A stretch of DNA of 64,000 bases from Candidatus Omnitrophota bacterium (lineage in GTDB: Bacteria; Omnitrophota; Gorgyraeia; Gygaellales; Profunditerraquicolaceae). The stretch lies in the NCBI GenBank assembly GCA_016208765.1, contig JACQXK010000021.1, positions 8,053 through 72,052 on the forward strand, written 5' to 3'. Of the stretch, positions 1 through 64,000 are shown in pieces (the first letter of the stretch is position 1; every line of letters begins with the position of its first letter). Position numbers and translations under genes: made by a program. The notes under the pieces are model-generated. The model was not told the origin of the DNA. It did not search any database and saw nothing but the letters and a program-made list of their open reading frames with translations.

Positions 1-1382
1 ATCCCTGCCACGAATATTGCGTTAATGTTATCACGCAAGTCAAATATACGCAGCCCTAAATATTCCGGCCTCAGCAGCACAGCAGTAATGCCGAATGACA
101 GAAATATTAAAAGCATGGTCAGATTCTCCAAACGGGTCATTATATAGGCAATGGGATTAAATAAACTCTCAGGCTCAAGATGGACAGCGGTAAGAAAAGC
201 CTGTATGTGGTCATAACCAAAATAAGTTTTCATACAAACATGCGTCATCAGCATGATAAGCAGAAGGATTGCCAGTGCAAGCAATACATTGAGCTTTCTA
301 TTGATAAAAAGTTCCCTCAGTGCAATGATCCCGGAAGCCGCAACCATAAAAAACCCCGTGAAAGTAAGTATATTCATCAGTAACAGTCCGCTTATAAAAA
401 ACAATACTCCAGAGAGGCCCCTTCTGTTTTTGACCATCATTATCACTCCCGATAGAAATAAAGTACAAAAACTTATGACCACTCCGTCCAGGCTGACAGC
501 GCTGTAGATGTTATAAGCAGGAACAACGGAAAAAAGCAGAGCAAACTGCGCGGATTGCTGCTTCGGCAAGTCAAGTCCTTTCATGATTTGATAGATCAGG
601 ATCATTGAAATACTGGACAGGAAGATAAAAGAGCCGGCAATAAACATAAGATTACCATGGAACAGCCTGATAAAAAAATAGTGAAGCAGAACAGCAAACG
701 GGGGATGAGTGCGCGTGTGCGACAGCAGGTGCGCCTGCTGTAAATTGAAGCTGCGAAGCCATTCGTGCCAATCTGTGATTTTAACCGCATCGTGGTAGTA
801 CTGCTGATAATGGGGCATGTTTAAATAGTAAAACGGAGCGCTGATGGGTTTGTAAAAAGCTTCTTCCACCCCGCCCTGCGCAAGGTTTCCGAGCAAAATT
901 AAACTGAGCCCGATTATCCATATTTGGAACACATTAAAATCCCCGCTATATTTAATTGACAGAAATAGGACTGCGAGAAACATAACTGAAAAAGGCAATC
1001 CGGCGATATGGATCCTTGGTCCGTCAAGTTCAGAAAAAGGGAACAGATCAGGCGTCCCGATACTCATGCCCATTTTTTTCATCAGATAATTCACAAAGGC
1101 CATTACCAGCCAGCCGATGATCAGCATGAGCACGGCGCCGGCAGGGCGCTTCAATAAATTCCTGGCACGTTCAGGAAAAATGAAAAACAAAGATCCAGCC
1201 GCTGTCAGTAAGCTGCCGAGAAGAAAAGCGAACAGACGCAACTGCTTAATGGCCTCATATCCTTCCGCCGTAACAATGCCGTCGGAAGACAGGTGTTTCA
1301 AAACGAAATCAGGCGAAAGAACTGTTGCGCCCAGAAGGCCTGCGATGCCGGCGGATGTGAGAAGAATTTTAAGAAAACGCAT
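1..1382 (-). CDS. Polytopic integral membrane protein of unknown function. The N-terminus is in the window and the C-terminus lies beyond the window start. Possibly a GT-C or polymerase-like protein.
   Basis: The minus-strand frame stays open for 460 codons, from ATG (plus 1380-1382) down to position 3. I checked it triplet by triplet and found no tta/cta/tca on the plus strand in that frame. An in-frame stop lies upstream at 1416-1418. The translation (MRFLKILLTSAGIAGLLGAT...HTRTHPPFAVLLHYFF...) is rich in hydrophobic helices. It is missing from the ORF track because its stop is outside the window. Confidence 0.55.
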   Translation of the reverse strand, partial: MRFLKILLTSAGIAGLLGATVLSPDFVLKHLSSDGIVTAEGYEAIKQLRLFAFLLGSLLTAAGSLFFIFPERARNLLKRPAGAVLMLIIGWLVMAFVNYLMKKMGMSIGTPDLFPFSELDGPRIHIAGLPFSVMFLAVLFLSIKYSGDFNVFQIWIIGLSLILLGNLAQGGVEEAFYKPISAPFYYLNMPHYQQYYHDAVKITDWHEWLRSFNLQQAHLLSHTRTHPPFAVLLHYFFIRLFHGNLMFIAGSFIFLSSISMILIYQIMKGLDLPKQQSAQFALLFSVVPAYNIYSAVSLDGVVISFCTLFLSGVIMMVKNRRGLSGVLFFISGLLLMNILTFTGFFMVAASGIIALRELFINRKLNVLLALAILLLIMLMTHVCMKTYFGYDHIQAFLTAVHLEPESLFNPIAYIMTRLENLTMLLIFLSFGITAVLLRPEYLGLRIFDLRDNINAIFVAG

Positions 1383-1392
1383 ATATATTTGT

Positions 1393-3045
1393 CTACTTAT
1401 ACTTATCAGTGATGACTAACAGGTCCTCATTGACAGGAAGCGGTTTGGCATTATATTTAGTCACAAGGGCCTTTGTAACAGGGTGATTTTTATCCGCAAC
1501 GATAAATATGCCTGCCCTGTGCCATTCTTCTCTCATAAAAAATTGATACTTATTGCAAATGGCAGGATTTTCCTTGCAAAAGGAAATAAACTTTTCATTA
1601 ATATTGCAGGCATTGAACACAAAAACGTCAAAAGGCGCAGAAAAAGAATACTTGTAATCCGTTCTTCCGCATACCCCGCCTTCTGAAGGAGCGCAAAAAT
1701 CCTCTCCGTACTTTGCGTTGTGAATGTCTGTCAGTCCAAAAAGGTCTCTGACATAGACACTCGGGCCTGCGTAGTAGGGCAACATGCCGGCCACATCAGT
1801 AAGCAAAACTGCCGGAACATGTAATTCATTTAAAAAAGTCCCTATCTGCCGCGTGTGAAAAGAGAGAGGTTTTACCCCGCGCTTCTTTAATATTTCAACA
1901 GGCTTCAAGAAAAAGCCTGTTGATAAAACCAATATCAACACCGTTGCCGTGTATACAAGCGCTTTGACTTTTACTTCTTTATCACGAACTCTGTAAATAA
2001 AGGAATCAATGCCCCATCCAACCAGTATAAGCATTAGTGGAAGTACAGGGATCAATTGCCTGTGAAACCGGAAGAAGTCCCCTCCGCCCAATAATAGAAC
2101 AAATGCATTAACGGCTATGCCCGATGCGATCAGCCACAATAAGAAATCATTCTTGTCTCTATTCCTGAAAAGCAATATGAAAGGTATCAACACTCCTGTA
2201 TAAAGCAAAGGGGCTTCATATTTTATGCCTTCGGATATAATCCATATCAATCCCTTCACCGCCTGAAGATCGCCATTAATAATTTTTTTAAGGGAATAGG
2301 ATGCGTACCCCTTTGCCATGACCGTTGCCGGGACCCATTCCTTATAAAAGCTGTGCCTTGCCAGAAATATCATGACGGTCAAAGCAATGAATACGGATAT
2401 CGTCATAATTAATTTTTTAGGAATGTATTTATATTCCAGAAACACAAACCAGGTTAATACGGAAAGCATAAAAAGCGCGTAGAGCGGTCCTTCAGCCCTC
2501 ACGATATTTAAGAGCAACAGGGAAGGCAATACAGTCAAATAATTACCCGATGCCCTGCTCTTATAGAGACTGATTATGCAATACAATAATGCCAAGGAAG
2601 ACAATAACATGTCCGTCCATCCTGAGGCGCCGTAATGATAAACTCCGTAAGAAAGTGTGTATAACATCAAAATGACAATCGTCATAACACGAGGGCGGGA
2701 GAACCGGATAAGGGTGCAAATATAGCTCATGAGCAAAATACACCCTATTCCAATGAACAGATTCAAGACAGGGGAAAACGTAACAAGATTAAAAGACAAA
2801 AAAGATGCGGCGGCATAAATAGCTACCGACAAAAAACTCGAATACCCTTCAACATATTCACCGATGTTGAATACCGGCCCATGTCCGGCTGCCCAGTTCT
2901 CGGCATAGCGGTAGGCTATATAAGGATCGTCAACAAAAGGGGTTCCCTGAATGAAGAAGATGAATAAATAGATTGCGGTAAATAATAAAACTGCCGGAAG
3001 CGCATCCCGGAAAAATACTTCAACTTTATTCTTATTTCTTGACAT
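1393..3045 (-). CDS. Putative GT-C fold membrane glycosyltransferase of the DDxY family. It has an N-terminal multi-TM domain and a C-terminal soluble domain.
   Basis: 550 aa. The first loop motif VDDPYIAYRYAENWAAGHGPVFNIGEYVEGYSS is shared with ORF 18959..20836 (DDAYILLRYIDN...GLVYNKGEYVDGLSS). There are about ten hydrophobic segments. An acidic DD motif in the first periplasmic loop is typical of ArnT, PMT and other GT-C enzymes. Confidence 0.55.
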   Translation of the reverse strand: MSRNKNKVEVFFRDALPAVLLFTAIYLFIFFIQGTPFVDDPYIAYRYAENWAAGHGPVFNIGEYVEGYSSFLSVAIYAAASFLSFNLVTFSPVLNLFIGIGCILLMSYICTLIRFSRPRVMTIVILMLYTLSYGVYHYGASGWTDMLLSSLALLYCIISLYKSRASGNYLTVLPSLLLLNIVRAEGPLYALFMLSVLTWFVFLEYKYIPKKLIMTISVFIALTVMIFLARHSFYKEWVPATVMAKGYASYSLKKIINGDLQAVKGLIWIISEGIKYEAPLLYTGVLIPFILLFRNRDKNDFLLWLIASGIAVNAFVLLLGGGDFFRFHRQLIPVLPLMLILVGWGIDSFIYRVRDKEVKVKALVYTATVLILVLSTGFFLKPVEILKKRGVKPLSFHTRQIGTFLNELHVPAVLLTDVAGMLPYYAGPSVYVRDLFGLTDIHNAKYGEDFCAPSEGGVCGRTDYKYSFSAPFDVFVFNACNINEKFISFCKENPAICNKYQFFMREEWHRAGIFIVADKNHPVTKALVTKYNAKPLPVNEDLLVITDKYK

Positions 3046-3120: not shown

Positions 3121-4167
3121 TTACATTGTTTTTTTCTTAAGCCAAGAATATACAGGTGCTTCAATAAAGCAGTAAAATAAAACTCCGGCAAGCACGGCCA
3201 TCGTCGTCATAATAAAGTATATTAATGTATTCGAATTAATAATTTTCAGGTAATCAATAAAAGCACCTGTGAAAGGTATTCCAACTCCATGTATGAGATA
3301 AATAGAATATGAGGCAGTCCCAAGAAACAATATAAATTGATTTTTCTTAAATAGTGATTCAACCATGTTATCCATGGAACCTAAGACAATTAGAAATGAA
3401 GCAAATCCTGCCAATAGAACCCTTGAGTGAAAAAAAGGCAGGAATTCTTTGAGGAAACCCAATAATGCCGACAAAAATATCAGGTTACCAGTTAAAAAAA
3501 ACCATATCCCCCTTTTCTTAATTAATCCTTCGAATTTTAGAGCTAAAAAACATGCAATCATTCCAAAGCCAAAAAGCAAATTATTGCATGAGAAAAGAAA
3601 GCCGAATTCATTATATATATCTTGTGAAGGAATATTAAGTGTCAGTATTATAACTTGCCAAATAATAAATACAATGCTCCCAACCTTTTTCGAAAGTATT
3701 AACAAACCAAAGAACAAATAAAAAATGATTTCATGAACAAGAGTCCATGCTATAGTTATAGGAGGTTCTCCACCGATCAACAACAGGCCAGATATTAATG
3801 GCAGAAATTCTATTTTGAGACTATTGTAATTGTCGAACATAAATAACTTAAATGAATGTACAAGAACTGCAAGCCAATACACTGGATAAATTCTCATAAA
3901 TCTCTTTTTAATAAATATACTAATTTTCTTTGACACTCCTATATCATTTTTGTGATTATAATAAACGATAAAACCACTTAGAACGAAAAAAAATTGGACA
4001 GCAAAATTTCCAAATTCAAACAGCAAAGTTAACCTATTTGTATAAAAATGGTCATCCATGTACATATTTGCATGGAAAAATACGATTAATAAAGCAGCGA
4101 AGGCCCGATAAACATGTAGGGAGTAAATCATCTTGACCGTTAATTTCCTATGAGTTTGTCCAAGCAA
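3121..4167 (-). CDS. Acyltransferase family 3 (OafA/YrhL-like) membrane O-acyltransferase.
   Basis: The motifs YRAFAALLIVFFH and FFFVLSGF are present, and the protein is multi-TM across 348 aa. The real start may be the internal Met (MIYSLHVYRAF...) near 4131. Confidence 0.75.
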   Translation of the reverse strand: MLGQTHRKLTVKMIYSLHVYRAFAALLIVFFHANMYMDDHFYTNRLTLLFEFGNFAVQFFFVLSGFIVYYNHKNDIGVSKKISIFIKKRFMRIYPVYWLAVLVHSFKLFMFDNYNSLKIEFLPLISGLLLIGGEPPITIAWTLVHEIIFYLFFGLLILSKKVGSIVFIIWQVIILTLNIPSQDIYNEFGFLFSCNNLLFGFGMIACFLALKFEGLIKKRGIWFFLTGNLIFLSALLGFLKEFLPFFHSRVLLAGFASFLIVLGSMDNMVESLFKKNQFILFLGTASYSIYLIHGVGIPFTGAFIDYLKIINSNTLIYFIMTTMAVLAGVLFYCFIEAPVYSWLKKKTM

Positions 4168-4616: not shown

Positions 4617-6389
4617 CTACCGAATACCGTTTATTTTTGCTTCATTATTTTCCATTAATTGTATTTCAAAATCCAGATAGTCCATGGTAGTTATTGTTGC
4701 TGGGACTGTGTTAAGAAATATTGCCTTCACCTTATTAGCTGGATGAATTAAATCTAACCATGTCTTAATAATATCTTCAGAGAGACACAATTTATTGGGA
4801 ACATCTACATATATCGTAGTAGTGTTATTGGGTAAGGAATAAACAATTTCAGAAAATTTTTTAAAAAAAATGAATTCGGATTTTGTTTCTGGTCGCCATC
4901 CTTTGATTTTTGTAAAAGGAGAATTAAAAAAAAGAAGTAACATCAAAATACCCATAACTAATGGAATAGCTATAGGCTTGAATAAAAATAAACGGGAAGA
5001 ACAAGCCTCTTTGATAGATTGAAAGCTTTCAAAAAGAATAAACGAGAGAAGAATACTGAAGGGTATTACAGAAAAATACATGTGCCAATTGGCTAAATAC
5101 AGCGTTAATAAATAAAGACTTAAAAGCAGTGACAACCAGATAATAAGAAAAACTATCAATTTGTTCTTATATGAGAGCGGGAAAAATATCCTTTTTTGTT
5201 CATAACTACCTACACATATTAAGCAAATGAAAAAAAAGTATAGAAAAAAATAGAATCTATTTAAAAAACTTCCCCTTTCATCATTTAAATAATTTATCCA
5301 CGATGTAATATTTTTGCCTTCAAAAAGCTGATGAGCTATGCCCAAATAGTTATTTTCTGTTAGCCGCGCTATTAATTGTTCTACAATAAGATAAACAGGA
5401 ATGCTGATTGTAGATAATATAAGCCCAATTATTAGCAGCTTCCCTACTAATTTCAATTTCCCCTGATGTAATTTACTGTAAAGCATTAAAGAAATAATGA
5501 GTGGAGGTAGAATCGTTACAAAAAGCCCTAAAGTAGATGTATTTAAATTTATTAGGTTACCGGGAGTTAGTAAGTAATAGAAATATTCAAAAATAATACT
5601 TCGGAAACCTCTTACTAATGGCTCGTGATATCCACCAAGTAAGCTTTTTAGAATATATAACCGCCAGATAAACAATATGAAAGTTACAATAAAATATGGG
5701 GCAACCTTTTTGATAGCCTGAACTGTCCTGAACTTTGGAGATGCTTCCTCTGAAAATATTATTAGATATGCGAAAACTAATACAGGAAATATAATTGCGG
5801 TCTCTTTTGACCAAAATGCAAGGATATATAAAAATATGGAGGAAAGTAAAAAAAATCTTCTATAAGATGCTACAGAAAGATGCTTCAAAAATAACAATAA
5901 AGAAAGTATTGAAAATAACGGTGACATAAGATCAGCTCTCATACCAACAGCAGTAACGCTATACATATTAACAGGGTGAGTTGTAAAGATAACTGCACTG
6001 ATCCACGCTATGAACTGTTTACCACCTGTAAGCAGCCTCGCTAAGAAGAAAACGGAGATTGAAACTAAAATATGGATGAGCAGATTTGTCAGATGGTAAC
6101 CAAAAGGATTTAGTTTCCATATAGAGTAATCTATTGAAAAAGACAATATCATCACTGGGCGATATAGAAGATGGTAAATCCCTGTTGTCTCAAGAAACCT
6201 TTCAGTGAAAATACGGGAAATATCTCCAAGGTCATGAACTCTGCCTTGATGAATACATTGCAAATCATCACCCCTAAAAAAATATTGAAGCATGTCTTTA
6301 AAGCTAAAAAAGGCAATGAGGCTTATCGATAAAAGCGCAAAGACTGTAAAAAATTGTTGGCTGGTGCAGGCCTTGTGTCCCCTCTTCAA
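4617..6389 (-). CDS. GT-C membrane glycosyltransferase, PMT_2/TMTC-like (DUF1736-type), paralog 1.
   Basis: 590 aa. The motif WKLNPFGYHLTNLLIHILVSISVFF matches the NPxGYHLxNxxLH signature of ArnT/PMT-superfamily TMTC-like O-mannosyltransferase homologs. The protein is polytopic with a C-terminal soluble domain. Confidence 0.7.
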   Translation of the reverse strand: MKRGHKACTSQQFFTVFALLSISLIAFFSFKDMLQYFFRGDDLQCIHQGRVHDLGDISRIFTERFLETTGIYHLLYRPVMILSFSIDYSIWKLNPFGYHLTNLLIHILVSISVFFLARLLTGGKQFIAWISAVIFTTHPVNMYSVTAVGMRADLMSPLFSILSLLLFLKHLSVASYRRFFLLSSIFLYILAFWSKETAIIFPVLVFAYLIIFSEEASPKFRTVQAIKKVAPYFIVTFILFIWRLYILKSLLGGYHEPLVRGFRSIIFEYFYYLLTPGNLINLNTSTLGLFVTILPPLIISLMLYSKLHQGKLKLVGKLLIIGLILSTISIPVYLIVEQLIARLTENNYLGIAHQLFEGKNITSWINYLNDERGSFLNRFYFFLYFFFICLICVGSYEQKRIFFPLSYKNKLIVFLIIWLSLLLSLYLLTLYLANWHMYFSVIPFSILLSFILFESFQSIKEACSSRLFLFKPIAIPLVMGILMLLLFFNSPFTKIKGWRPETKSEFIFFKKFSEIVYSLPNNTTTIYVDVPNKLCLSEDIIKTWLDLIHPANKVKAIFLNTVPATITTMDYLDFEIQLMENNEAKINGIR

Positions 6390-6514: not shown

Positions 6515-7255
6515 GTGATCCAGGAAAAAAAGAAACTATCCATAGTCTCCCCGCTTGCAAACGAATCAGAGACCTTAGAGTCCTTTTATAAGGAAATAAT
6601 CAAACATATCTCCCCGTTTGAAGACAGAATACAGATTAAGATATTTTTTGTTGTAGACAACGCAAGCAAAGATAATACCCGCAAGATCGTGGAGTCTCTT
6701 CAAAAACAGGACAGCCGGGTTCAGCTTGTGTGGGCGCCACAGAACAGATGTGTAGTGGACGCATACCTTGCCGGTTTTAAAGCCGCCATTGAAGATACCA
6801 CTGACTATATTTTGGAAATGGACGGAGGCGGCACTCATTTACCAGGTGAGATACCTCATTTCATTAACAAACTATTTGAGGGATACGATTGTGTCTTCGG
6901 CAGCAGGTTTACAAAAGACGCTGAAATGGACGCAAGTTTAAGGCGGCATTTTTTCAGCAGAGGGGGCACTATTGTTGCAAGAATTCTGCTTGGCATGAAG
7001 ATGTCGGACGCAACATCAGGTTTTGAAGCTTTTAAAAAAGATATTCTAAAAGCTATCATCTCAAAAAAACTTGTCTCTATCGGGCATTTCTACCAGACGG
7101 AAATCCGGTTCAGGGCCAAAGATTTCAACTATGCCGAAGTCCCGATCCATTACAGCAATCCCGTCAATAAAATTCCTTCAAAATATATACGCAATGCTTT
7201 TTACGGGCTGTTAGTCTGCTTCTTCGAAAGGGTCAGGGGTGTTAAGTATGGGTAA
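6515..7255 (+). CDS. GT2 family glycosyltransferase, Dpm1/GtrB-like soluble polyprenol-phosphate sugar synthase.
   Basis: GTG start. The protein has a VVDNASKDNT-type nucleotide-sugar binding region, an EMDGGGTH DxD-like segment and GSRF. No C-terminal TM helix. Confidence 0.75.
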   Translation: MIQEKKKLSIVSPLANESETLESFYKEIIKHISPFEDRIQIKIFFVVDNASKDNTRKIVESLQKQDSRVQLVWAPQNRCVVDAYLAGFKAAIEDTTDYILEMDGGGTHLPGEIPHFINKLFEGYDCVFGSRFTKDAEMDASLRRHFFSRGGTIVARILLGMKMSDATSGFEAFKKDILKAIISKKLVSIGHFYQTEIRFRAKDFNYAEVPIHYSNPVNKIPSKYIRNAFYGLLVCFFERVRGVKYG

Positions 7256-8243
7256 ACAAGCTGTTGTAATAACAACAATTCAGAAGCCTACAAAGGCTAT
7301 TTTAAAAATCGGCAGGCAATTAGGCAAGACATTTGATATTGTAATCGTGGGCGACAAGAAATCACCTCCGGATTTTTCAGCCAGGAACGTAAGCTTCTAC
7401 GGCGTTGAACAACAAGTCAATGTCGGTTCCAGGCTTGCAAAACTTCTTCCATATAATCATTACGGAAGAAAAAATATCGGCTATATTATTGCGATACGAA
7501 ATGGCGCTGAACTGATTTTAGAAACAGATGATGATAATATCCCGTATCAGGATTTCGGGACTAATCTTAATCTTGAAGTTAAAGGGGAATTAATCGCGGC
7601 TAAAGGATGGTTTAATGTTTATAACGAATTTACAGCGGAATATATCTGGCCGCGGGGATTTCCGCTGGAGAAAATAAATCAGAAGGCAAGGACCAGTAAG
7701 GCCAATCGAATAACGAACTGTCATATACAGCAATTTTTGGCAGATAAAAATCCGGATGTTGACGCTGTATACCGGTTAACAAAACCTTACAAAGACATAA
7801 TTTTCAAGAAGCGCAAACCTGTCATATTGGGAAAAGGCACATGGTGCCCCTTCAACTCCCAGAATACCGTAACCTACAAAGAGGCCTTCCCTCTCCTGTA
7901 CCTGCCTTCATATGTCTCTTTTCGCATGACCGATATCTGGAGAAGTTTTATTGCGCAAGCCGTAATGTGGTCCATGGACTGGTTATTAAGTTTCCATTCA
8001 TCGACTGTTTATCAGGAGCGGAATATCCATAATCTGCTTAAGGACTTCGATCAGGAAATCCCCGGATACCTGAAAAACCAACTGATCATCGATATCCTGA
8101 ATACAGTTCACTTTTCAGGCTCTGTGGGAAACAGGCTGTATCAAGCCTATGAGTCCCTGTCTAAGGAAAGAATTGTTGAAAGGAAAGAGTTAAAGCTGGT
8201 GGAAGGCTGGTTGAAGGATTTGAAGAAAGCTCAAAGTTACTAA
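7248..8243 (+). CDS. Putative GT-A fold glycosyltransferase of the DUF288/STELLO-like type. Function uncertain.
   Basis: The ATG at 7248 overlaps the stop of the upstream GT2 (tATGggTAA), suggesting translational coupling. The N-terminal Rossmann-like strand is VVITTIQKPT and the acidic patch is ETDDDNIP. The ORF track starts it at 7239 (GTG). Confidence 0.4.
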   Translation: MGKQAVVITTIQKPTKAILKIGRQLGKTFDIVIVGDKKSPPDFSARNVSFYGVEQQVNVGSRLAKLLPYNHYGRKNIGYIIAIRNGAELILETDDDNIPYQDFGTNLNLEVKGELIAAKGWFNVYNEFTAEYIWPRGFPLEKINQKARTSKANRITNCHIQQFLADKNPDVDAVYRLTKPYKDIIFKKRKPVILGKGTWCPFNSQNTVTYKEAFPLLYLPSYVSFRMTDIWRSFIAQAVMWSMDWLLSFHSSTVYQERNIHNLLKDFDQEIPGYLKNQLIIDILNTVHFSGSVGNRLYQAYESLSKERIVERKELKLVEGWLKDLKKAQSY

Positions 8244-11508: not shown

Positions 11509-11511
11509 ATT

Positions 11512-55489: not shown

Positions 55490-55538
55490 AGCTAATTGTC
55501 TGGCACTGTAAGCAGCTCCGTTTTTCTGCTCCGTTGAT

Positions 55539-56732: not shown

Positions 56733-56776
56733 TGTCTTCCTTTCAATAAGATTTCCACCAAACTTACTTTATGTGA

Positions 56777-57661
56777 TTATGCACAGTTACAGCGTCCAAA
56801 AATTCGCTGCTTCAAGGCTCCTGCATTGGCGCGAGCCTTAACAGGCAATCCTGCAAACCAGCGCTTTAGTCTTAATGATAGACCTGCCTCGTCAGGCTGT
56901 TCTGTGTCTATCTTCCTCCATACGCCTTTGTCGGTCCTCCATTCAGGAAACCAGCGGTCCATATCCGCTCCGCAAATCAGCTCAAAAGATTTTCTCATTT
57001 CCTCATCCCATCCCTCCCAGTACCTTACCGGCTGATAGGCGATATTCAGTTTCTCGACCAACACCTTGCGTTCACCCCGCAGATCGAGGAACTTCGCAAT
57101 CTGCGGCATTGTTGTCTTTAACCTGTCGAGCCGCACCTTCATCCATCGCCCGCTGTCAAGGCTATGTATATGCGTCTCTATAACAAGGTTATATTTCTTC
57201 CAAAGCCAGCAGCATTTTTCAAAACGATTCATCTGTTCCCATTCCTGAAGGGGAAAATCTCCGGTCCGGTCGCCTTGAAGACGGCCTTTTTTCCATTCCT
57301 CCGGGACCTTTGGATCATCGGGATCGAACCAGCCGCGATAATACATTGATGCCACCACATCACGTCCGTCACGTATAAGCCATATGTATTTAGCAGACGG
57401 AAATACCTTCTCAATAACAGGGACAAGCAAACTCAATTGAAGATTTACTTCGCCGTATATTTTATTGATTGATTTCTTAACCCGGGTTGAACGAAGCACT
57501 TCGGCGACTTGTTCTTCAGGGTATTCGCCATAATAGTACTGTGTCGCTTCAATAACAAGTTCAGGTTCAGGATGATGGAAACATGTACAATTACTGAAGC
57601 TGTTAAGAGCAGTGGCAATTGTCCTGCTGCCGCTCCGTCCGGAACTTAGTACAAAAAACAT
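56777..57661 (-). CDS. Stf0-like sulfotransferase (P-loop sulfotransferase domain).
   Basis: The N-terminus is FFVLSSGRSGSRTIATAL (5'-PSB-like). The RDGRDVVASMYYRGW region is 3'-PB-like. Confidence 0.55.
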   Translation of the reverse strand: MFFVLSSGRSGSRTIATALNSFSNCTCFHHPEPELVIEATQYYYGEYPEEQVAEVLRSTRVKKSINKIYGEVNLQLSLLVPVIEKVFPSAKYIWLIRDGRDVVASMYYRGWFDPDDPKVPEEWKKGRLQGDRTGDFPLQEWEQMNRFEKCCWLWKKYNLVIETHIHSLDSGRWMKVRLDRLKTTMPQIAKFLDLRGERKVLVEKLNIAYQPVRYWEGWDEEMRKSFELICGADMDRWFPEWRTDKGVWRKIDTEQPDEAGLSLRLKRWFAGLPVKARANAGALKQRIFGRCNCA

Positions 57662-57787: not shown

Positions 57788-59350
57788 TCACTTCCTTACA
57801 AGCAACGTAAAGCTGCCTATTTTTTGTGTCGGCCCATAATGTTCCATTATATACTGGTCTAAAACAGGGGCCCATAATGTGCGTTTCCCTGTTTCGGAGA
57901 GATCTGATATTATCAGTCTTACATTTTTTTCTTCCAGTAATCTCATCACTTCTTCCTGACGCTTCGTCGATTTCATATATTCAGGAATGGATGCATATTT
58001 CTCCAGGGCCCTCCTGCCGGTCACAAAATTAAACATCTGGGAATTATTCGGAAAAGTAAAGACATATTCGCCTTCTTGTGTTGTCTTCTTAATTGCGTCG
58101 ACCACTTTGTTAAATTCGTCCGCGTATTTCTCTTTAGTATAAACTTTCAATTTCGGGTCTGATAAAAATGTTCTGTTAAAAACCCGCATGAATATGGAAC
58201 CATTTATATAGGGATCGGAGATTGAGCAGCTTGCAATGATGTTTACTGCAAGCAACAGGTTCAACCCTATGAGACCCGCCCTGTAAGCAAGTCCGGTTTT
58301 GGGAGAAGGTTTTCCAATTGAATTGCTGAAATATCTTGAAATCAGGTACACGTCGGCAATCAAAACAGGAGGCAGTATTTGATTAATACGGCTTATTCCA
58401 GGATACGATATGGCCTGATTTAACGTTAAGCATCCAAACAGAAACACTATGAAGAGCTTAATGTCTTTATCATTAATCTCTCTTTTAATGATAATTAAAG
58501 CAAGCAGGATAAAAACAAGAAGGTAAAATATGAAAGGAAGGGTCAACCCTATGAATTTATATATTGCCAATAAATCAAAGGACAGCAGTTGTTTCATTGG
58601 TAAAAGGTAAAACCAAACGCTTTTCATGGCCGCTGTATAATCCATTGTTTGACGGAAAGCCTCAGCAAGTGCATCATGAAATAAAAGATACAGCAGTAAT
58701 GGGGCAACACTCACGGCAGAGCCACATATAAAAATCAAAATGTTCTTCAAAGAAACATTAATTTCAGTGCTGTCAAAAACTGCTTTGGCATATTTTGTCG
58801 TCCTTGCCATCTGAACTATAAAGAAGCCTGTAACAAAGAACCCGCAAATGTCGACTCTGAACAGCAAAATAACACCAACAGCCAGCCCGGCGAGAAAATA
58901 AAACCGGTTACTCTGAAGGTATCTTAGTTTGACCAATATTAAGATGCTCAGGAGAACGCAAAAGACAAAAAAACCTTTGTGCGGGTCACCGGGAATCAGC
59001 CAAAGTAATAACGGCAATACAAATGCCGCCCTCCGGGATACGAATTCAATACCTACAAGATAAATGAGAAGACAATTGAGCGCCCGGATTACGCTCCAGC
59101 TGATTGTGGCAGCATAGAGGGAGACACCAAAAAGCTTAAAAGCCAAAGCAGTGTAAACATATATCCCCGGCGTGTACAATATGCTGAAATCCTTATAGAA
59201 AACACCTCCATACAGAAACCGCTCGGTTGCTACCAGTATCATTCCCCAATCGCTTATTATAAAACCATAATTAGCATAACTCAGATAATAAAGAAGTGAT
59301 ATAAAAAATACTACGACAGGGGTATAAAATTGACTGTTCTTAACCGACAA
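57788..59350 (-). CDS. Polytopic membrane protein (520 aa). Candidate Wzy-like polymerase or GT-C.
   Basis: It has at least 12 TM helices. It sits directly downstream of the Wzx-like flippase gene. Confidence 0.4.
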   Translation of the reverse strand: MSVKNSQFYTPVVVFFISLLYYLSYANYGFIISDWGMILVATERFLYGGVFYKDFSILYTPGIYVYTALAFKLFGVSLYAATISWSVIRALNCLLIYLVGIEFVSRRAAFVLPLLLWLIPGDPHKGFFVFCVLLSILILVKLRYLQSNRFYFLAGLAVGVILLFRVDICGFFVTGFFIVQMARTTKYAKAVFDSTEINVSLKNILIFICGSAVSVAPLLLYLLFHDALAEAFRQTMDYTAAMKSVWFYLLPMKQLLSFDLLAIYKFIGLTLPFIFYLLVFILLALIIIKREINDKDIKLFIVFLFGCLTLNQAISYPGISRINQILPPVLIADVYLISRYFSNSIGKPSPKTGLAYRAGLIGLNLLLAVNIIASCSISDPYINGSIFMRVFNRTFLSDPKLKVYTKEKYADEFNKVVDAIKKTTQEGEYVFTFPNNSQMFNFVTGRRALEKYASIPEYMKSTKRQEEVMRLLEEKNVRLIISDLSETGKRTLWAPVLDQYIMEHYGPTQKIGSFTLLVRK

Positions 59351-59413: not shown

Positions 59414-60937
59414 CTATGCTTTTGAAACATTCAGAAGCTTCCGGTAGATTAGTTGCAGAATGTAGGTGTCATCTTTATCCAATTTAAACAGATATATAAA
59501 AATACTGTATAAGACTACGAACAGTAAAGCGAGGAACGCTGTTGCAACCAGGTGGATAGACGCAAGGTTATAAATTATCGGAGCAACTATCAGAGATGAT
59601 AAAAGACCGGCTATACAGGGTTTCAGGTAGTCCAATTTATAAGGATGAAATCCTAAAAAAAGGTAGACTTCTATTAATCTTAAAATATTTATTGCAGCCA
59701 GCGAGAGACCTGTTGCCGTTGCCGCGCCAATGATACCGTATTGGGGAATCAATACATAATTAAGACCAATATTCGAAAAACAAAATATGATGGAATTCAG
59801 AAGCACAATCCTTGATCTTCCGGTCATCATGAGCATATATCCCACTGAACCGGAACCGGCATTAACCAATTCGCCTCCGCCAAGGATCATTAGAGCAACA
59901 GCTCCAGCGGCAAAACCCTGGCCGAATATTCCCATGATCGGTTCAGCAAGCAAAATACACAAAAGAAAGACCGGAAAGCTCAGTATAAAAACCCACTTTG
60001 TTGTGGTCTTAAACAATTCTTCCAATTTCCCCATCTCGTTCTTACTGTAAATTTCAGAAATCATAGGCGCAAAAATGGTGTTGAAAGAACTTAGCGGCAG
60101 CAAGATCAAAATCGCCACCCTGCCGACTGCATTGTATATTCCAACATCGCTTGCCGTCTTGAAATATCCCAACATTAAAGAGTCAATATAAAATGTTAGA
60201 ACTCCGAAAAATTGGTTTAAGGACAACGGGAGTGAAAAAGCTATTATCTCTTTTTTTTCATAAACAGGCTCTGGCAGTTTTTTGTGAACAGGGAATATTT
60301 TGACAAGGTAAAACAGTGAAAAGAAAAAGCCGGTCAGAATGGAAATAATGCTTGCTATCAAAATACCGCCCAGTTTCATTCCGATCAGAAACAAAGATAT
60401 TAGAACGACAAGTTTTACCACCGGTTGATAAAACTTCTGTATGTATATTTGATATTTTATAACCTGGAACGACTGTATGACTCTCAACCAAAGCTCTCCA
60501 AGTGTCAGGAAGGGCAGTGATATAATTAAAACCTTTAATGGCAATTCTAAACTGCTGTCATGGAAAAATCGCACTGCTATATAATCAGCGTAAAAAAATA
60601 TTATTCCCGTTAATAAAAGACTCAGGGATAGTGTTATCTTTGTGCCAAATATTATCGTGCCCTTCAACCTCTGAGTGTCCCCCTTGGCCTTGTAAAAAGC
60701 AACAAATCTAAGCAAGCCATCATTCAACCCGAAACTTGAAAATATCTGTGCAATCCATGTGATAATATTTGCGAGATTGAAGATCCCGAATATGGCAGGT
60801 CCAACATGCCTCGTCATAACAATGTTTGTTATGTATCCAAATACATTAAAAACAACCTCGCCTATCCCGCTGATGCTGGCGTTTTTTGCTATCTTGGACA
60901 AATCTGCATCATATGTCTGATCTTCTTTCATCTCCAA
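59414..60937 (-). CDS. Wzx-like oligosaccharide flippase (MOP/PST family polysaccharide biosynthesis protein).
   Basis: 507 aa with about 14 TM helices. The N-terminus (KNASISGIGEVVFNVFGYITNIVMTRHVGPAIFG) is typical of the PST family. Confidence 0.65.
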   Translation of the reverse strand: MEMKEDQTYDADLSKIAKNASISGIGEVVFNVFGYITNIVMTRHVGPAIFGIFNLANIITWIAQIFSSFGLNDGLLRFVAFYKAKGDTQRLKGTIIFGTKITLSLSLLLTGIIFFYADYIAVRFFHDSSLELPLKVLIISLPFLTLGELWLRVIQSFQVIKYQIYIQKFYQPVVKLVVLISLFLIGMKLGGILIASIISILTGFFFSLFYLVKIFPVHKKLPEPVYEKKEIIAFSLPLSLNQFFGVLTFYIDSLMLGYFKTASDVGIYNAVGRVAILILLPLSSFNTIFAPMISEIYSKNEMGKLEELFKTTTKWVFILSFPVFLLCILLAEPIMGIFGQGFAAGAVALMILGGGELVNAGSGSVGYMLMMTGRSRIVLLNSIIFCFSNIGLNYVLIPQYGIIGAATATGLSLAAINILRLIEVYLFLGFHPYKLDYLKPCIAGLLSSLIVAPIIYNLASIHLVATAFLALLFVVLYSIFIYLFKLDKDDTYILQLIYRKLLNVSKA

Positions 60938-61014: not shown

Positions 61015-61938
61015 CTAACCTTCTTTATTCATTTGCATGATGTGCCGTATTCCGTCTAATATGCCAAGTATCGGCCGGGCGTCCAGGGCTTTAATGCTTT
61101 TAATCGTATTCAATATTACTTCGCCAACAACACTCCAGCAATATGCAATATGGTTCTTCAGCTTTCCCGGCGTATGCTTTCTGTGAAGATTATATGCATT
61201 AATTAGCATCTTCCTGTTAAAGTCTCTGGCAGGCAAATGAGTGCTTTCAGAATGGTTGTGAGTAAGCAGTGCAAACGGCGTTTGATATAATTTATAGTTT
61301 CTTGATACACGATAGGATATCTCAAGGTCGGTACACCTGTCAAAGTCCTCATCGAATTTAAATTTATTAAATACCTTTTTGTAAAAACTGCATAAACCCG
61401 CCGGCATAGCCTCAACTTCTATAATCCCTTTTGGCTCAAGGATATATACATATCCTAAAGAAGGCAGGAACCTGCCCTTTTCATTTTTGGAAGCTCGGGT
61501 CATGAAGAAGAATTTTTTAAAGACTCCGTTTATCCAATTTGGATTGTAATAATTAAAGAGGCTCCCCTGAACACCACCCAATTTCGCGTCATCTTTCAAT
61601 TTATAAACTTCGAGTATCTTCTCAATGTAGTCTGCGTGAAGAACAACATCATCATCAAGAAATAAAATTATCTCGCCACTTGCTTTTTCCGCTCCGAGAT
61701 TACGCTGTTTATTAACACCAGGTGAACTTCTCAAATAAATCAGCCCAATCTTATCCCCAACAATATTTTCGCAATTTATCTGATTTTCACTGCTGATACC
61801 AGTGGAACTCGAATCAACTATTATCAACTCATCCGGTAAAACTGTTTGGACAATAATGGAACCTACACACTTTTGGATATCCGCAGGCCTGTCTTTAGTA
61901 GGGATAACAACAGAGCTTGTCATCTTACTTATCTGCAC
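61015..61938 (-). CDS. GT2 family glycosyltransferase.
   Basis: SVVIPTKDRPADIQKCVGSI and FLDDDV (DxD) are present. 307 aa. Confidence 0.75.
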   Translation of the reverse strand: MQISKMTSSVVIPTKDRPADIQKCVGSIIVQTVLPDELIIVDSSSTGISSENQINCENIVGDKIGLIYLRSSPGVNKQRNLGAEKASGEIILFLDDDVVLHADYIEKILEVYKLKDDAKLGGVQGSLFNYYNPNWINGVFKKFFFMTRASKNEKGRFLPSLGYVYILEPKGIIEVEAMPAGLCSFYKKVFNKFKFDEDFDRCTDLEISYRVSRNYKLYQTPFALLTHNHSESTHLPARDFNRKMLINAYNLHRKHTPGKLKNHIAYCWSVVGEVILNTIKSIKALDARPILGILDGIRHIMQMNKEG

Positions 61939-62026: not shown

Positions 62027-62719
62027 CTACTTAAAAATTCCGTACTTAAAGATAACATATAATGCTCTAACACCATCTTTCCAGCCAATCTTTTTACCCT
62101 CAAAATATGTACGGCCATAGTAAGATACGCCCGTTTCGAATATTCTGCACCTGAGCTTACTGATTTTGGCGGTGAATTCCGGTTCAAATCCGAACCTGTC
62201 TTCCTTCAATTCTATTTTACTCAATATCTCTTTCCGGAAGACTTTATAGCATACCTCCATATCAGTCAGGTTCAGATTTGTAAACATATTTGAAACCAGG
62301 GTCAGAAATCTGTTCCCGAGGTAATGCCAGAAAAATAATACACGATGCGACTCGCCGCCAATAAATCTGGAGCCATATACTACATCAGCTTTATCCTCAA
62401 TAATTGGCTTTATAAGCTTAGGATATTCTTGTGGGTCATATTCAAGGTCTGCATCCTGAATTATTATAATGTCCCCGGTAGCAGCTCTAAACCCGCTTTT
62501 AAGAGCAGCTCCCTTACCCATGTTGTTAGCATGATATACAACTTTTGTACCATTACGGCCATCTATGGATTTTAAATATTCCCTTGTCCCATCAACAGAA
62601 CAATCATCAACAACAATAATCTCCCGCTCAAATTCTAAAGGAACACTCTGGACCTTTTCTAAAATTGTTCCAATAGTTTTATTTTCATTGAAGCATGGCA
62701 CTACAATAGAAATTTTCAA
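62027..62719 (-). CDS. GT2 family glycosyltransferase, Dpm1-like soluble polyprenol-phosphate sugar synthase.
   Basis: ISIVVPCFNENKTI, VDDCSVDGT and QDADLEYDP are present. 230 aa. Confidence 0.8.
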   Translation of the reverse strand: MKISIVVPCFNENKTIGTILEKVQSVPLEFEREIIVVDDCSVDGTREYLKSIDGRNGTKVVYHANNMGKGAALKSGFRAATGDIIIIQDADLEYDPQEYPKLIKPIIEDKADVVYGSRFIGGESHRVLFFWHYLGNRFLTLVSNMFTNLNLTDMEVCYKVFRKEILSKIELKEDRFGFEPEFTAKISKLRCRIFETGVSYYGRTYFEGKKIGWKDGVRALYVIFKYGIFK

Positions 62720-62836
62720 TTCCTCACCTCGTCCGGGAATTTATGACGCACCGCCTTCAGTTTTGATTTAATTCTAAAATGATTCAGTCTGGGCGACTGA
62801 GCTCTTTTGTAAAACAAAATGTCCCTGAAATATACT

Positions 62837-64000
62837 TCAGTCATTTTCCTTTACTTCTATTATTTGATCAGCATTAATATTTGTTAACACCGACCGCTTA
62901 CTGCTTGGCCAAACAATTTCTATTTTATCTACAACGATTGACTTGGCAAGTCCGAAATGGATAATGCTACTGTGCTGGCTGTACCCTTCCATTCCTCCTG
63001 TACTCTGCCGATATTGCATCATGTTCCCGGCATATAGTCTTATTTGAGCGCCGATTGCGTCTCTGTTACTCGTTGTTCCGAATAATTTTAATTTAAGCCA
63101 GTGGTTCATGTTACCCTTGTTTTCATACAATACGTTTGAACCCGCTTTAGCTTCATATTTATCGTCCCAAATCCTTCTACCGTTAGTTAAAAACAAATCC
63201 AGAAAACCATCATTATTGTAATCAGCATTTGTAACACTGCATCCCTTGCCGTTAAAGTCCTGTATCAAGCCTATTTTTTTAACAACATTCGTAAACGTTT
63301 TATCTCCATTGTTTTCAAAGATGATATCATTAAGATTAGCGCCCGACGGGTCATCAACAAGGAGGTAAATATCCAAGTCTCCGTCGTTATCATAATCAAA
63401 AAAAACCGCTTTATTCCCGCCCATTTCTATTCTGAATCCGGTTTTGTCTGATACGTCTATAAACTGTCCACCTCCTGTATTTTCATATAGTTTATCGAAC
63501 CCTCTGAAAATGTACGGGAATACGCTGAAGTCGTATTTCCCAATATACATCCTTGGCGGAGCAGTGATAAACAAATCATAGTCACCATCGTTGTCATAAT
63601 CACCCCATGCATACCTCAGGCCATTAAATGTCATAACCTTTTTGAACGTACCATCGCGCATGTTTCTGAAAATAGAAATCTCCCATGTATCCCTGTGCCC
63701 CCGGTTAAAAGATACTGTCAAATCCATATATCCATCATTGTCATAATCTGTCCAGCTTGCCTCGACAGGTTCATCCACAAAATCTAATCCGGCTTTAACT
63801 GTGACATCAGAAAACGTGCCATCTCCGTTATTTCTGAATAAGACGGAAGGGGCATCACTGCGTTTGCCGTTTGCCATAAATAAATCTAAAAATCCATCGT
63901 TGTCATAGTCGACCCATGAAACGGACCTTCCCCTGCCCTTCGGGTTTGTAACGCCTGCTTTTACAACAACGTTAACAAATCTACCTGTTCCGTCATTCTG
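62837..64000 (-). CDS. FG-GAP/VCBS (ASPIC-UnbV-like) repeat protein. The C-terminus is in the window; the N-terminus lies beyond the window end.
   Basis: It carries repeated NNGDGTFSDVT, DYDNDGYMDL and DYDNDGDLDI beta-propeller calcium-binding-type motifs. The frame stays open upstream of the listed Met to position 64000 (…SWVDYDNDGFLDLFMANGK…). Confidence 0.7.
   Translation of the reverse strand, partial: QNDGTGRFVNVVVKAGVTNPKGRGRSVSWVDYDNDGFLDLFMANGKRSDAPSVLFRNNGDGTFSDVTVKAGLDFVDEPVEASWTDYDNDGYMDLTVSFNRGHRDTWEISIFRNMRDGTFKKVMTFNGLRYAWGDYDNDGDYDLFITAPPRMYIGKYDFSVFPYIFRGFDKLYENTGGGQFIDVSDKTGFRIEMGGNKAVFFDYDNDGDLDIYLLVDDPSGANLNDIIFENNGDKTFTNVVKKIGLIQDFNGKGCSVTNADYNNDGFLDLFLTNGRRIWDDKYEAKAGSNVLYENKGNMNHWLKLKLFGTTSNRDAIGAQIRLYAGNMMQYRQSTGGMEGYSQHSSIIHFGLAKSIVVDKIEIVWPSSKRSVLTNINADQIIEVKEND

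Follow-up and report, generated by a model that had tools for sequence, protein, structure and literature searches.

The 64-kb window analysed here, that is, the whole stretch of DNA under study, comes from contig JACQXK010000021.1 of an uncultured groundwater bacterium (Candidatus Omnitrophota) and carries a dense glycoconjugate locus, in which 12 polytopic membrane proteins resembling glycosyltransferases (GT) of the GT-C fold lie among eight GT2 proteins with a PF00535 domain (g4, g7, g14, g24, g27, g31, g49 and g50; Table 1). A previous account of this DNA made from its letters alone (the sequence-only reading) had put the GT-C-like proteins at about 12, as we find, and had taken all eight GT2 proteins for polyprenyl-phosphate sugar synthases of the Dpm1/GtrB kind; five or six of them look like such enzymes. 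The right-hand third of the window (42.5-62.7 kb) is, judging by its gene families, a conventional cytoplasmic module for a glycan linked to undecaprenyl diphosphate (Und-PP), with an exosortase/EpsI pair. The sequence-only reading made no mention of this module, nor of the phosphotransferases g20/g23, the YdjC-family deacetylase g29, the GT9 protein g21 or the GT75 homologue g5 described below.

In an all-against-all BLAST comparison the polytopic proteins sort into families, and the twelve GT-C-like members fall into at least six that look unrelated, which would imply different donors. Nine are well supported and three (g0, g22 and g28) are provisional. The subclasses singled out by the sequence-only reading are recovered: two proteins of the 'YPFELEW' type (g15 and g19, 43% identical to each other), two with a 'DDxY' motif, which are AftB-like (g1 and g16), and three that are TMTC-like (g3, g6 and g18). 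Three proteins, g15, g19 and g25, score above the Pfam threshold for PMT_2 (PF13231; 26.1 bits). The TMTC-like proteins themselves have no Pfam match; their homologues are bacterial 'protein O-mannosyltransferase' proteins with PMT_2 and tetratricopeptide repeat (TPR) domains. Within this family g3 is 36% identical to g18, and g6 is 39-40% identical to both over the N-terminal 250 aa and 63% identical to its orthologue in a 'candidate division WS5' metagenome-assembled genome (MAG; locus L002); an identical copy of g18 at NCBI is named 'glycosyltransferase family 39 protein'. For g16 and g47 we used AlphaFold2 models searched with Foldseek, the other ten proteins being assigned by sequence. 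The g16 model (pLDDT 85, pTM 0.87) retrieves AftB first (E=1e-9, TM-score 0.55), then ALG9, ALG12 and ArnT. With the g47 model (pLDDT 84.9) the top 34 matches among Protein Data Bank (PDB) structures are all GT-C enzymes (STT3/AglB/PglB, AftA, DPY19, ALG12, ArnT, Emb and Pmt4), the best being STT3/AglB at a TM-score of ~0.5. By predicted fold, both proteins belong to the GT-C class. Protein g47 also matches the LA_3751/2 family weakly, and its own family has an invariant E43 and D54. Two other roles considered for g47 were rejected: the predicted GT-C_A fold rules out a Wzy polymerase or an O-antigen ligase, and the lack of a WWDYG/WWD-type motif and of a PF02516 match rules out an STT3-type oligosaccharyltransferase.

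The provisional members have partial signals. Protein g0 matches PMT_2 with E=3.3e-3 over profile positions 2-155 of 160 and is 57% identical to an orthologue on a JGI contig (L001); g22 matches PMT_2 (E=3e-4) and Agl23 (TIGR03663, E=8e-8), and its L002 orthologue, 74% identical, likewise has a weak PMT_2 match; g28 matches PMT_2 with E=1.4e-4, and of 42 sampled members of its family of 1,917 cluster representatives 11 match PMT_2, the best with 6e-8. An acidic motif follows the first transmembrane helix (TM1) in g1, g16, g3 and g22 (Table 1) and, as FELEWxEG, in g15 and g19; it is less clear in g6 (NID), g18 (SSD), g25, g28 and g0. Profile searches of PDB sequences with the TMTC-like, g47 and g28 families and with the single g22 sequence gave no matches, and hhalign comparisons between the GT-C families, and of g0 with the families, gave uninformative probabilities below 20%. 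Overall, the polytopic proteins look like GT-C enzymes, as the sequence-only reading had it, and not like transporters or Wzy-type polymerases. Their families and the neighbouring donor-synthase genes suggest that they use polyprenyl-phosphate- or polyprenyl-diphosphate-linked donors at the extracytoplasmic face of the membrane.

The AftB-like assignment is backed by residues as well as by fold. A profile of the family (41 homologues) matches mycobacterial AftB (PDB 9dlf) with E=5.8e-26, and g1 matches the family profile built without g1 and g16 with E=1e-17, the alignment covering DD...RY...G.V.N.GEYVEG.SS. AftB depends on three residues, D62 in its DD motif, which is catalytic, and R221 and R372, which bind phosphate (PMC12041299); their aligned counterparts in g16, D124, R261 and R388, vary little or not at all among the 41 sequences. 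Pfam searches of the window's open reading frames (ORFs) gave neither a UbiA-type phosphoribose synthase nor DprE1/E2, and we therefore regard g1 and g16 as distant homologues of AftB and not as its orthologues. The family has 413 matches in species-representative genomes; the best 80 of the 413 are all from MAGs, of Planctomycetota, Myxococcota, Krumholzibacteriota, Binatia, Nitrospirae, Acidobacteriota and other phyla. We compared 87 loci around AftB-like genes. The commonest neighbour is a sulfatase-fold membrane protein, present within 10 kb in 24 of the 87 and directly adjacent in 12 (L001, L006, L017, L024, L039, L057, L064, L066, L073, L074, L082 and L087), and the two are fused in P0016 (1010 aa) and P0087 (732 aa). 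The pair is a conserved two-gene module in many uncultured lineages. Further GT-Cs of the types seen in the window lie near AftB-like genes in only 6 of the 87 loci (L003 and L011, the same region, are both counted), so that the multi-GT-C architecture is confined to a few groundwater lineages. FG-GAP/VCBS proteins, some with UnbV_ASPIC, also occur near AftB-like genes (L005, L006, L007, L035 and L070). Such proteins were considered as conserved partners or acceptors of the AftB-like enzymes, having been present at 3 of 3 hand-picked loci; they were rejected in this role on the systematic count of 4/87, and the association is weak.

The eight GT2 proteins comprise two of the GtrB/ArnC class (g7 and g14), three that are Dpm1/AglJ/PpgS-like (g4, g24 and g50), an ambiguous one (g31) and two that look ordinary (g27 and g49), so that the view of the sequence-only reading that none is an ordinary glycan-elongating enzyme seems to stand for most of them and to fail for the last two. 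Both g7 (PgfS, 2.8e-69; ArnC, 3.3e-42) and g14 (ArnC, 5.4e-53; PgfS, 3.3e-48) match polyprenyl-phosphate sugar synthases over their full length, with scores below the equivalog cutoffs, which suggests that their sugar specificity differs from that of ArnC and PgfS. The four best NCBIfam matches of g4 (PgfS, ArnC, AglJ and dolichyl phosphate (Dol-P)-hexose transferase) are all to such synthases. Those of g24 are AglJ, PpgS and Dol-P-hexose transferase, and its sole PDB match is the Pyrococcus Dol-P-mannose synthase 5mlz (6e-10). The latter also leads the matches of g50 (1.8e-22 over residues 1-223), followed by ArnC and GtrB, and g50 matches AglJ with 7.7e-31. In the case of g31 the top scores belong to generic GT2s; alignments to Dol-P-mannose synthase, PpgS and AglJ are the only ones that cover the full catalytic domain.

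Genes for sugar activation lie beside the putative synthases. The four proteins g10-g13 are a DegT aminotransferase, a GFO/IDH/MocA oxidoreductase, a nucleoside diphosphate (NDP)-hexose 2,3-dehydratase and an FdtA-like isomerase (PF01041, 5e-114; PF01408; PF03559, 2.8e-154; PF05523, 7.8e-36), with orthologues in L001 at 71-84% identity. From g15 to g6 the genes run ArnC-like GT2, FdtA-like isomerase, 2,3-dehydratase, oxidoreductase, DegT aminotransferase, two methyltransferases and GtrB-like GT2, with GT-C genes at both ends, a layout reminiscent of arn. Because the pathway includes the 2,3-dehydratase, the FdtA-like isomerase and two methyltransferases, the donor is probably not the 4-amino-4-deoxy-L-arabinose (L-Ara4N) of that system. 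Further along, a second grouping, of GT2, YdjC-family deacetylase (g29) and GT-C, resembles FlmF2/NaxD/FlmK; Francisella NaxD, a member of the YdjC superfamily, deacetylates undecaprenyl phosphate (Und-P)-GalNAc before transfer of the sugar to lipid A (PMC11279074).

On the plus strand g5 has a Pfam STELLO match and matches MtdL in the PDB (7xpr/7yua, E=5e-30). MtdL is a Mn-dependent GT75 NDP-pyranose mutase that forms GDP-L-galactofuranose and GDP-L-fucofuranose (PMC9937993). Protein g5 keeps its DDD109-111, R159 (catalytic and autoglycosylated), D195, S228, Q229, R257 and D260, and has Gln in place of the Mn ligand His287. The inactive AtRGP5 also lacks His287, together with Arg257, and the activity of g5 is uncertain because of this shared loss. 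In a Nitrospirae MAG (JACQZG010000045; L003, 4309-9903) an AftB-like gene is contiguous with genes for a 240-aa GT2 and an RGP/GT75 protein 32% identical to g5, and the same stretch encodes a GHMP kinase, a nucleotidyltransferase and two epimerases. The gene set has the appearance of a full salvage-to-lipid-donor pathway for a furanose and suggests a course through NDP-furanose and polyprenyl-phosphate-furanose to AftB-like transfer.

Several proteins appear suited to decorating a glycan with groups other than sugars. The paralogues g20 and g23 (57% identical) have a periplasmic alkaline-phosphatase/sulfatase-fold domain (PF00884, 2.6e-50 for g20). At the position of the sulfatase motif C/S-x-P-x-R they carry 'TTP(S/A)T' ('NWTTPST' in g20), with a Thr which we take to be the nucleophile. 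True sulfatases were ruled out for them, Thr standing in place of the Cys or Ser that is converted to formylglycine; this residue makes them EptA/LtaS-like phosphotransferases, an assignment consistent with their five predicted transmembrane (TM) helices and sulfatase fold. Four SGNH-type proteins (g17, g30, g32 and g38), of which three have an N-terminal TM helix by prediction, are also present; g17, which is related to g30 and g32, has weak GDSL_2/ALGX matches and matches the LA_2486 SGNH family with 3.5e-5.

In the right-hand module the exosortase g34 and the EpsI-like g33 (PF09721, 2e-58, and PF11984 among their Pfam matches) stand in the same string as a priming transferase, two GT4 proteins and a Wzx-type flippase. 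The exosortase passes the generic model TIGR02602 and scores below the type-specific cutoffs of XrtV (1.8e-61) and XrtB (6.6e-60), and g33 passes TIGR02914; no gene for a PEP-CTERM substrate was found in the window. Neither Pfam nor NCBIfam gave a match for the small protein g36. With the priming transferase, the GT4 pair, Wzx and the GT9 protein g21 present, not all transfers would take place in the periplasm. The FG-GAP/UnbV_ASPIC protein at the window edge may lie outside the glycan system.

Table 1. Genes and other features of the 64-kb window (TM, transmembrane; SAM, S-adenosylmethionine; positions count from the first nucleotide of the window)
Gene	Position	Strand	Assignment
g0	3..1382	-	Polytopic, C-terminus beyond window; possible GT-C, weakest of the twelve
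g1	1393..3045	-	AftB-like GT-C; 'VDDPY' after TM1
g2	3121..4167	-	Putative acyltransferase-3 membrane O-acyltransferase; PF01757, E=2.6e-23
g3	4617..6389	-	TMTC-like GT-C without TPR; 'GDD' after TM1
g4	6515..7255	+	Soluble Dpm1-like GT2; overlaps g5 by 17 nt
g5	7239..8243	+	GT75 (RGP/STELLO-type) NDP-pyranose mutase homologue
g6	8265..9737	-	TMTC-like GT-C
g7	9815..10741	-	GtrB/PgfS-type synthase: GT2 plus two C-terminal TM helices (~231, ~267)
g8, g9	10792..12249	-	Two SAM-dependent methyltransferases
g10-g13	12257..16256	-	NDP-deoxy-aminosugar pathway
g14	16338..17300	-	ArnC-type synthase: GT2 plus two C-terminal TM helices (~238, ~271)
g15	17415..18962	-	PMT_2 GT-C, 'YPFELEW' type; PF13231, 35.8 bits
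g16	18959..20836	-	AftB-like GT-C; 'MDDAY' motif
g17	20888..22156	-	N-terminally anchored SGNH/GDSL-like protein, weak support
g18	22233..24029	-	TMTC-like GT-C
g19	24064..25560	-	PMT_2 GT-C, 'YPFELEW' type; PF13231, 34.2 bits
g20	25602..27578	-	Five TM helices plus periplasmic alkaline-phosphatase/sulfatase-fold domain; EptA/LtaS-like
g21	27594..28811	-	GT9 (heptosyltransferase family); PF01075, 6.5e-22; overlaps g22 by 4 nt
g22	28808..30445	-	Probable GT-C; 'WIDEA' after TM1
g23	30468..32429	-	Paralogue of g20
	32426..32650	-	74-aa ORF, two TM/hydrophobic segments, 'YVDPNTGG'; stop overlaps g23 start by 4 nt
g24	32827..33588	-	Dpm1-like soluble GT2
g25	33685..35586	-	PMT_2 GT-C; PF13231, 30.9 bits
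g26, g27	35676..37077	-	Methyltransferase (g26); ordinary or unassignable GT2 (g27)
g28	37125..38777	-	Probable GT-C; overlaps g29 by 14 nt
g29	38764..39555	-	YdjC-family carbohydrate deacetylase, NaxD/LgmC-like; PF04794, 6.4e-33
g30	39561..40637	-	Anchored SGNH/GDSL esterase or acyltransferase; PF13472, 2.4e-11
g31	40613..41404	-	GT2, possibly Dpm1-like; assignment ambiguous
g32	41463..42578	-	Anchored SGNH-like protein, weak support
g33, g34	42547..44063	-	EpsI-family protein (g33); exosortase, nearest XrtV/XrtB types (g34)
g35-g38	44060..48216	-	Methyltransferase (g35); g36; NodU/CmcH-type carbamoyltransferase (g37); SGNH/GDSL protein (g38)
g36	45010..45399	-	129 aa, no TM helix; overlaps carbamoyltransferase gene by 38 nt
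g39	48338..49783	-	Polyprenyl glycosylphosphotransferase, priming; TIGR03025, 1.1e-126 (above cutoff); PF02397
g40-g43	within 49832..57661	-	GT4 (g40); polysaccharide deacetylase (g41); NDP-sugar epimerase/dehydratase (g42); GT4 (g43)
g44-g46	within 49832..57661	-	DegT aminotransferase (g44); GFO oxidoreductase (g45); sulfotransferase-like protein (g46)
g47	57788..59350	-	GT-C-fold protein adjoining Wzx g48
g48	59414..60937	-	Wzx/MOP flippase; PF01943, 5e-27; PF01554
g49	61015..61938	-	Ordinary GT2, HpsN/EpsD-like
g50	62027..62719	-	Dpm1-like soluble GT2
	62840..64000	-	FG-GAP/VCBS plus UnbV_ASPIC protein, N-terminus beyond window; PF13517, 2.7e-27; PF07593, 3.9e-16

All these genes are intact and tightly packed. 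We count 52 non-nested ORFs, two of them truncated at the window ends, with 50 on the minus strand and only g4 and g5 on the plus strand, or 53 and 51 if the 74-aa ORF is included; the strong strand bias claimed by the sequence-only reading holds, its figures (54 of 56) do not. Two genes of the window lie 31 apart in our count, where the NCBI locus tags HY761_04755 and HY761_04915, of proteins 100% identical to their products, imply 32 genes between them. The coding fraction is ~96%; neighbouring genes are separated by a median of 41 nt, and by more than 130 nt in just two places. Short overlaps had likewise been noticed, and 12 are genuine (4-38 nt, six of them exactly 4 nt). The apparent 200-nt overlap between the DegT (54212-55738) and GFO (55539-56732) genes is probably an artefact of calling the most upstream TTG as the start, the Pfam domain beginning at residue 118. 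GC skew is negative over the whole window, placing the genes on the G-rich strand, so that their co-directionality is partly ordinary leading-strand bias. The gap lengths are compatible with a few very long transcription units, as had been proposed, but consensus promoter and terminator scans of the window gave counts at the shuffled background and the units are not demonstrated by them; a tRNA scan of the window found none. The best sigma-70-like site on the gene strand (17364-17335, minus; TTGACA-18-AATAAT, 11 of 12 matches) sits in the 114-nt g15-g14 gap, upstream of the ArnC-like g14, and could serve the aminosugar block as an internal promoter. The 74-aa ORF gave no family match and may encode a small membrane partner. 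A 66-nt direct repeat, 98% identical, links the 5' coding end of g1 (2946-3011) with 4358-4423, where the second copy is stranded in the 449-nt g2-g3 gap next to a gene, g2, of low G+C (~0.31-0.36); this fragment of g1 looks like an insertion or recombination scar.

The arrangement recurs in other genomes. L002 is collinear with 7239-30445 of the window at 55-80% amino-acid identity; L088, which has its C4544 locus-tag prefix in common with L002 and so belongs to that MAG (GCA_003598115.1), runs collinear with 51892-60937 and likewise has g47 beside Wzx. As these contigs were assembled independently, the island is real and conserved and not an assembly artefact. Comparable mixtures of genes, in which GT-C genes number 6-7 per 20 kb, are found in L001 and in L003 and L004, the last two from one Nitrospirae MAG. 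On L004 (JACQZG010000008, 11922-18174) four consecutive genes encode membrane proteins of 340-620 aa without a Pfam match, three of them weakly similar to g1/g16; they are flanked by a carbamoyltransferase gene and then by SxtJ and DUF5989 genes. Close homologues in P0243, P0060, L012 and L041 carry the labels Levybacteria (candidate phyla radiation), Altiarchaeota and 'uncultured archaeon', which could reflect mis-binning or lateral transfer of envelope genes.

We consider it quite probable that the window is a composite envelope-glycan locus, in which several periplasmic modules of the Arn, Gtr, Lgm and Gac types are joined to one Und-PP-glycan pathway, and assembly or decoration of the surface glycan probably takes place for the most part outside the cytoplasm. 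By family assignment, a cytoplasmic pathway would build an Und-PP-oligosaccharide with the priming enzyme g39, the GT4 proteins g40 and g43, the GT2 g49 and the sugar-nucleotide enzymes, and the Wzx-type g48, encoded in the same string as the exosortase/EpsI pair, would export it. In parallel, cytoplasmic GT2s would charge polyprenyl phosphate with single sugars taken from nucleotide sugars, g7 and g14 as enzymes of the GtrB/ArnC type, g4, g24 and g50 of the Dpm1 type, and possibly g31; homology and gene order point to this step. One donor would probably be a methylated 3-amino-2,3,6-trideoxyhexose made by way of g8-g13, another probably an aminosugar that g29, of the YdjC family, would N-deacetylate in the manner of NaxD and LgmC, and a third possibly a furanose formed through the GT75 homologue g5. 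After flipping, the twelve GT-Cs would transfer the sugars to the exported acceptor at the periplasmic face, where the phosphotransferases g20/g23, the four SGNH proteins and the acyltransferase-3 protein may add groups other than sugars; the carbamoyl-, sulfo- and methyltransferases would do so probably on the cytoplasmic side. Candidate acceptors are an exported polysaccharide (priming transferase and Wzx), the lipopolysaccharide (LPS) core or lipid A, and protein, the second on account of the GT9 and EptA-like proteins and the NaxD-like module, the third on account of the PMT/TMTC homology and the exosortase; an arabinan-like elongation line in the periplasm is a further possibility. The central idea of the sequence-only reading, donor synthases feeding periplasm-facing GT-Cs, survives in this form; its synthase count does not.

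Several observations weigh against the composite account. No GtrA (PF04138) or small multidrug resistance (SMR)-type flippase was found among the window ORFs, and the only flippase candidate, g48 of the multidrug/oligosaccharidyl-lipid/polysaccharide (MOP) family, would have to serve five or six predicted donors and may, alternatively, be the Wzx that moves the Und-PP-glycan; apart from the 74-aa ORF, the window leaves no space for genes missed in annotation. The comparison with gtrABC and arnCT multiplied many times, drawn by the sequence-only reading, accordingly fits the many donor synthases and GT-Cs and is incomplete for the missing GtrA/SMR flippase. Neither Wzy, a chain-length regulator (polysaccharide co-polymerase), an outer-membrane polysaccharide exporter nor an O-antigen ligase was recognised in the window, which holds g39 and g48 alone of a Wzx/Wzy pathway, whose other genes could lie outside. 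Sequence is no certain guide in separating soluble Dpm1-like GT2s from ordinary ones, which g27 and g49 resemble, and the GT-C assignments of g0, g22 and g28 are based on Pfam matches below threshold. G+C ranges from 0.31 to 0.48 across the window, and because of this variation and the recombination implied by the 66-nt duplication the locus may be mosaic, with modules possibly serving more than one product. Finally, functions are assigned throughout from homology and gene order in a MAG.

A possible but doubtful alternative is that the GT-C block (~1-42 kb) mainly decorates LPS core or lipid A as a multiplied Arn/Lgm/Flm/Rgt system, adding aminosugars, uronic or other sugars and phospho-substituents independently of the exosortase-linked genes. 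The GT9 gene g21 overlaps that of the GT-C g22, both EptA-like five-TM phosphotransferases match the phosphoethanolamine-lipid A transferase domain (5e-12 for the N-terminal part of g20), the GT2-YdjC-GT-C module fits the NaxD pathway to lipid A in Francisella, and the ArnC-like g14 lies near a DegT aminotransferase gene, as in arn. However, g21, which matches heptosyltransferase II with 1.5e-21, reaches no curated cutoff of an LPS heptosyltransferase model, arylsulfatase and choline-sulfatase models outscore EptA models by far on the catalytic domains of g20 and g23, the window has no lipid A or Kdo genes, and twelve GT-Cs far exceed any known LPS-modification set.

We think it unlikely that many of the GT-Cs work as PMT/TMTC-type O-glycosyltransferases on secreted or exosortase-sorted (PEP-CTERM) surface proteins, with polyprenyl-phosphate sugars as donors. 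PMT_2 is matched by eight of the twelve, above or below threshold, and three more are TMTC-like, with homologues of the PMT_2-TPR architecture; nevertheless, PMT_2 also covers lipid and glycan transferases of the ArnT and Rgt types and hence does not identify an acceptor, and the TMTC-like proteins of the window (490-598 aa) lack TPR domains. The exosortase/EpsI pair in the same gene string would suit such a role, but no PEP-CTERM substrate gene accompanies it in the window; the secreted-type FG-GAP/ASPIC protein at the window edge, with similar ones beside some AftB-like genes, would suit it too, were the association not so weak (4/87 loci).

It is about as improbable that the GT-Cs elongate a polymer in the periplasm sugar by sugar, as Emb and Aft do for mycobacterial arabinan, in place of Wzy. 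In its favour are the two AftB-type enzymes with conserved catalytic residues, the overlap of g5, a homologue of furanose-forming mutases, with the Dpm1-like g4, the contiguous L003 genes for an AftB-like protein, a GT2, RGP/GT75 and sugar activation, and the adjacency of the GT-C g47 to Wzx in two genomes that goes with the lack of a recognisable Wzy. Set against this, of the 87 loci only 3 have a GT75 gene close to the AftB-like one, the Mn ligand of MtdL is Gln in g5, and at least six GT-C families, implying different donors, fit side-chain decoration equally well. That the gene density is an accident of assembly or of a recombination-prone, hypervariable surface-glycan region in which serotype modules accumulated, many of them redundant or inactive, is very unlikely, since the intact, closely packed, ~96% coding ORFs and the collinearity of both halves, at 55-80% amino-acid identity, with contigs from another MAG indicate a conserved, selected arrangement and not misassembly, in spite of the variable G+C, the duplicated 66-nt fragment, the paralogues g15/g19, g20/g23 and g3/g6/g18, and the hypervariable loci with LPS/capsule glycosyltransferases reported in Omnitrophota (bioRxiv 10.64898/2026.06.07.730766).

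Under the composite reading the principle, periplasmic glycosylation from lipid-linked donors, is textbook; the scale (12 GT-Cs, five or six synthases and two phosphotransferases) is not described in the literature searched. That literature, on Omnitrophota and glycosyltransferases and including two recent surveys of Omnitrophota genomes, describes no such locus, so that the novelty claimed by the sequence-only reading holds there; the architecture is not unique, having collinear copies in a second MAG and similar loci in Nitrospirae. Most original, in our view, are the AftB-type enzymes that occur outside the actinobacteria and keep the catalytic residues, the sulfatase-fold protein that recurs beside them, and the pairing of GT75 with a Dpm1-like GT2. 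Omnitrophota are ultra-small and probably host-dependent bacteria; we know of no isolates and of no description of their surface chemistry. With ~40 kb given over to periplasmic glycosylation, the conserved locus leads us to expect an envelope glycan of unusual complexity and heavy substitution, which could mediate attachment to a host. It also extends the AftB-type enzymes far beyond Actinobacteria. A course from a GT75 mutase to a Dpm1-like GT2 would, if true, be a new route to lipid-linked furanose donors, different from the PRPP (phosphoribosyl pyrophosphate)-based routes of mycobacteria and Citrobacter (PMC11127046); we offer it as a hypothesis, since GT75 genes are so rarely found near AftB-like genes. 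More speculatively, and in our estimate improbably, a Gram-negative candidate phylum may run a mycobacterium-like assembly line in the periplasm, in which AftB-type (possibly retaining) and other GT-Cs build or cap a furanoside glycan with donors supplied by an undescribed route from a GT75 mutase to a Dpm1-like enzyme and not by PRPP and decaprenyl-phosphoribose, the AftB-like/sulfatase-fold pair in hundreds of uncultured species then standing for addition of a sugar followed by its phospho-decoration.

The locus shares features with several known systems. As in GtrA/B/C of Shigella and Salmonella phages and in the O-antigen pentofuranose system of Citrobacter with GT136, which follow the three-component scheme of periplasmic glycosylation (PMC11127046), polyprenyl-phosphate-monosaccharides would be made in the cytoplasm and used by GT-C enzymes in the periplasm, and g7 and g14 have the architecture of GtrB. 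Unlike GtrA/B/C, with one enzyme of each kind, the window has five or six predicted synthases and 12 GT-Cs, some of the synthases are of the soluble Dpm1 type, and a single MOP-family flippase stands where GtrA or SMR proteins would be expected. With Arn, Bordetella LgmABC and Francisella FlmF2-NaxD-FlmK, which modify lipid A with aminosugars, the window has two combinations in common, of DegT, ArnC-like GT2 and GT-C (g10, g14 and g15) and of GT2, YdjC and GT-C (g27 or g31, g29 and g28); in contrast to Arn (ArnB/C/A/D/T/E/F), equivalents of ArnA, ArnD and ArnE/F are absent from the window. Exosortase/PEP-CTERM exopolysaccharide loci (EpsH/EpsI) likewise place an exosortase and EpsI among a priming transferase, GT4 proteins, a deacetylase and Wzx; they differ in having a PEP-CTERM protein, a chain-length regulator/tyrosine kinase, a Wza-type exporter and Wzy, none of which was recognised in the window, and the window exosortase fits no defined Xrt subtype above cutoff.

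With the mycobacterial arabinosyltransferases AftA-D and EmbA-C (AftB, 9dlf; PMC12041299) the window shares the clustering of several GT-Cs, predicted polyprenyl-phosphate-linked donors and, in g16 and g1, homologues in sequence and fold that keep the catalytic Asp and the two phosphate-binding Arg residues. However, the structural identity of g16 to AftB is only ~16%, the organism is not an actinobacterium, and a GT75 homologue with a Dpm1-like GT2 stands in place of the PRPP-dependent decaprenyl-phosphoribose synthase and DprE1/E2. The streptococcal GacH-L and SccN/P, SccM/Q and SccH systems (PMC11754754) differ in that the window belongs to a Gram-negative candidate phylum, its GT-C families are others and six times as numerous, and its backbone pathway is of the Wzx type and not of the ABC-transporter type. 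They are alike in pairing at least two Und-P-sugar synthases, predicted ones in the window, with GT-Cs; in the streptococci an LtaS-like sulfatase-fold phosphotransferase then decorates the new sugar, and the AftB-like/sulfatase-fold pairing would follow the same logic. The grouping of GT2, GT-C and LtaS-like phosphotransferase seen here resembles SccN/SccM/SccH and GacI/GacL/GacH, and SccN/SccM/SccH seems to us the closest worked example of a course from synthase to GT-C to LtaS-like phosphotransferase (PMC11754754).

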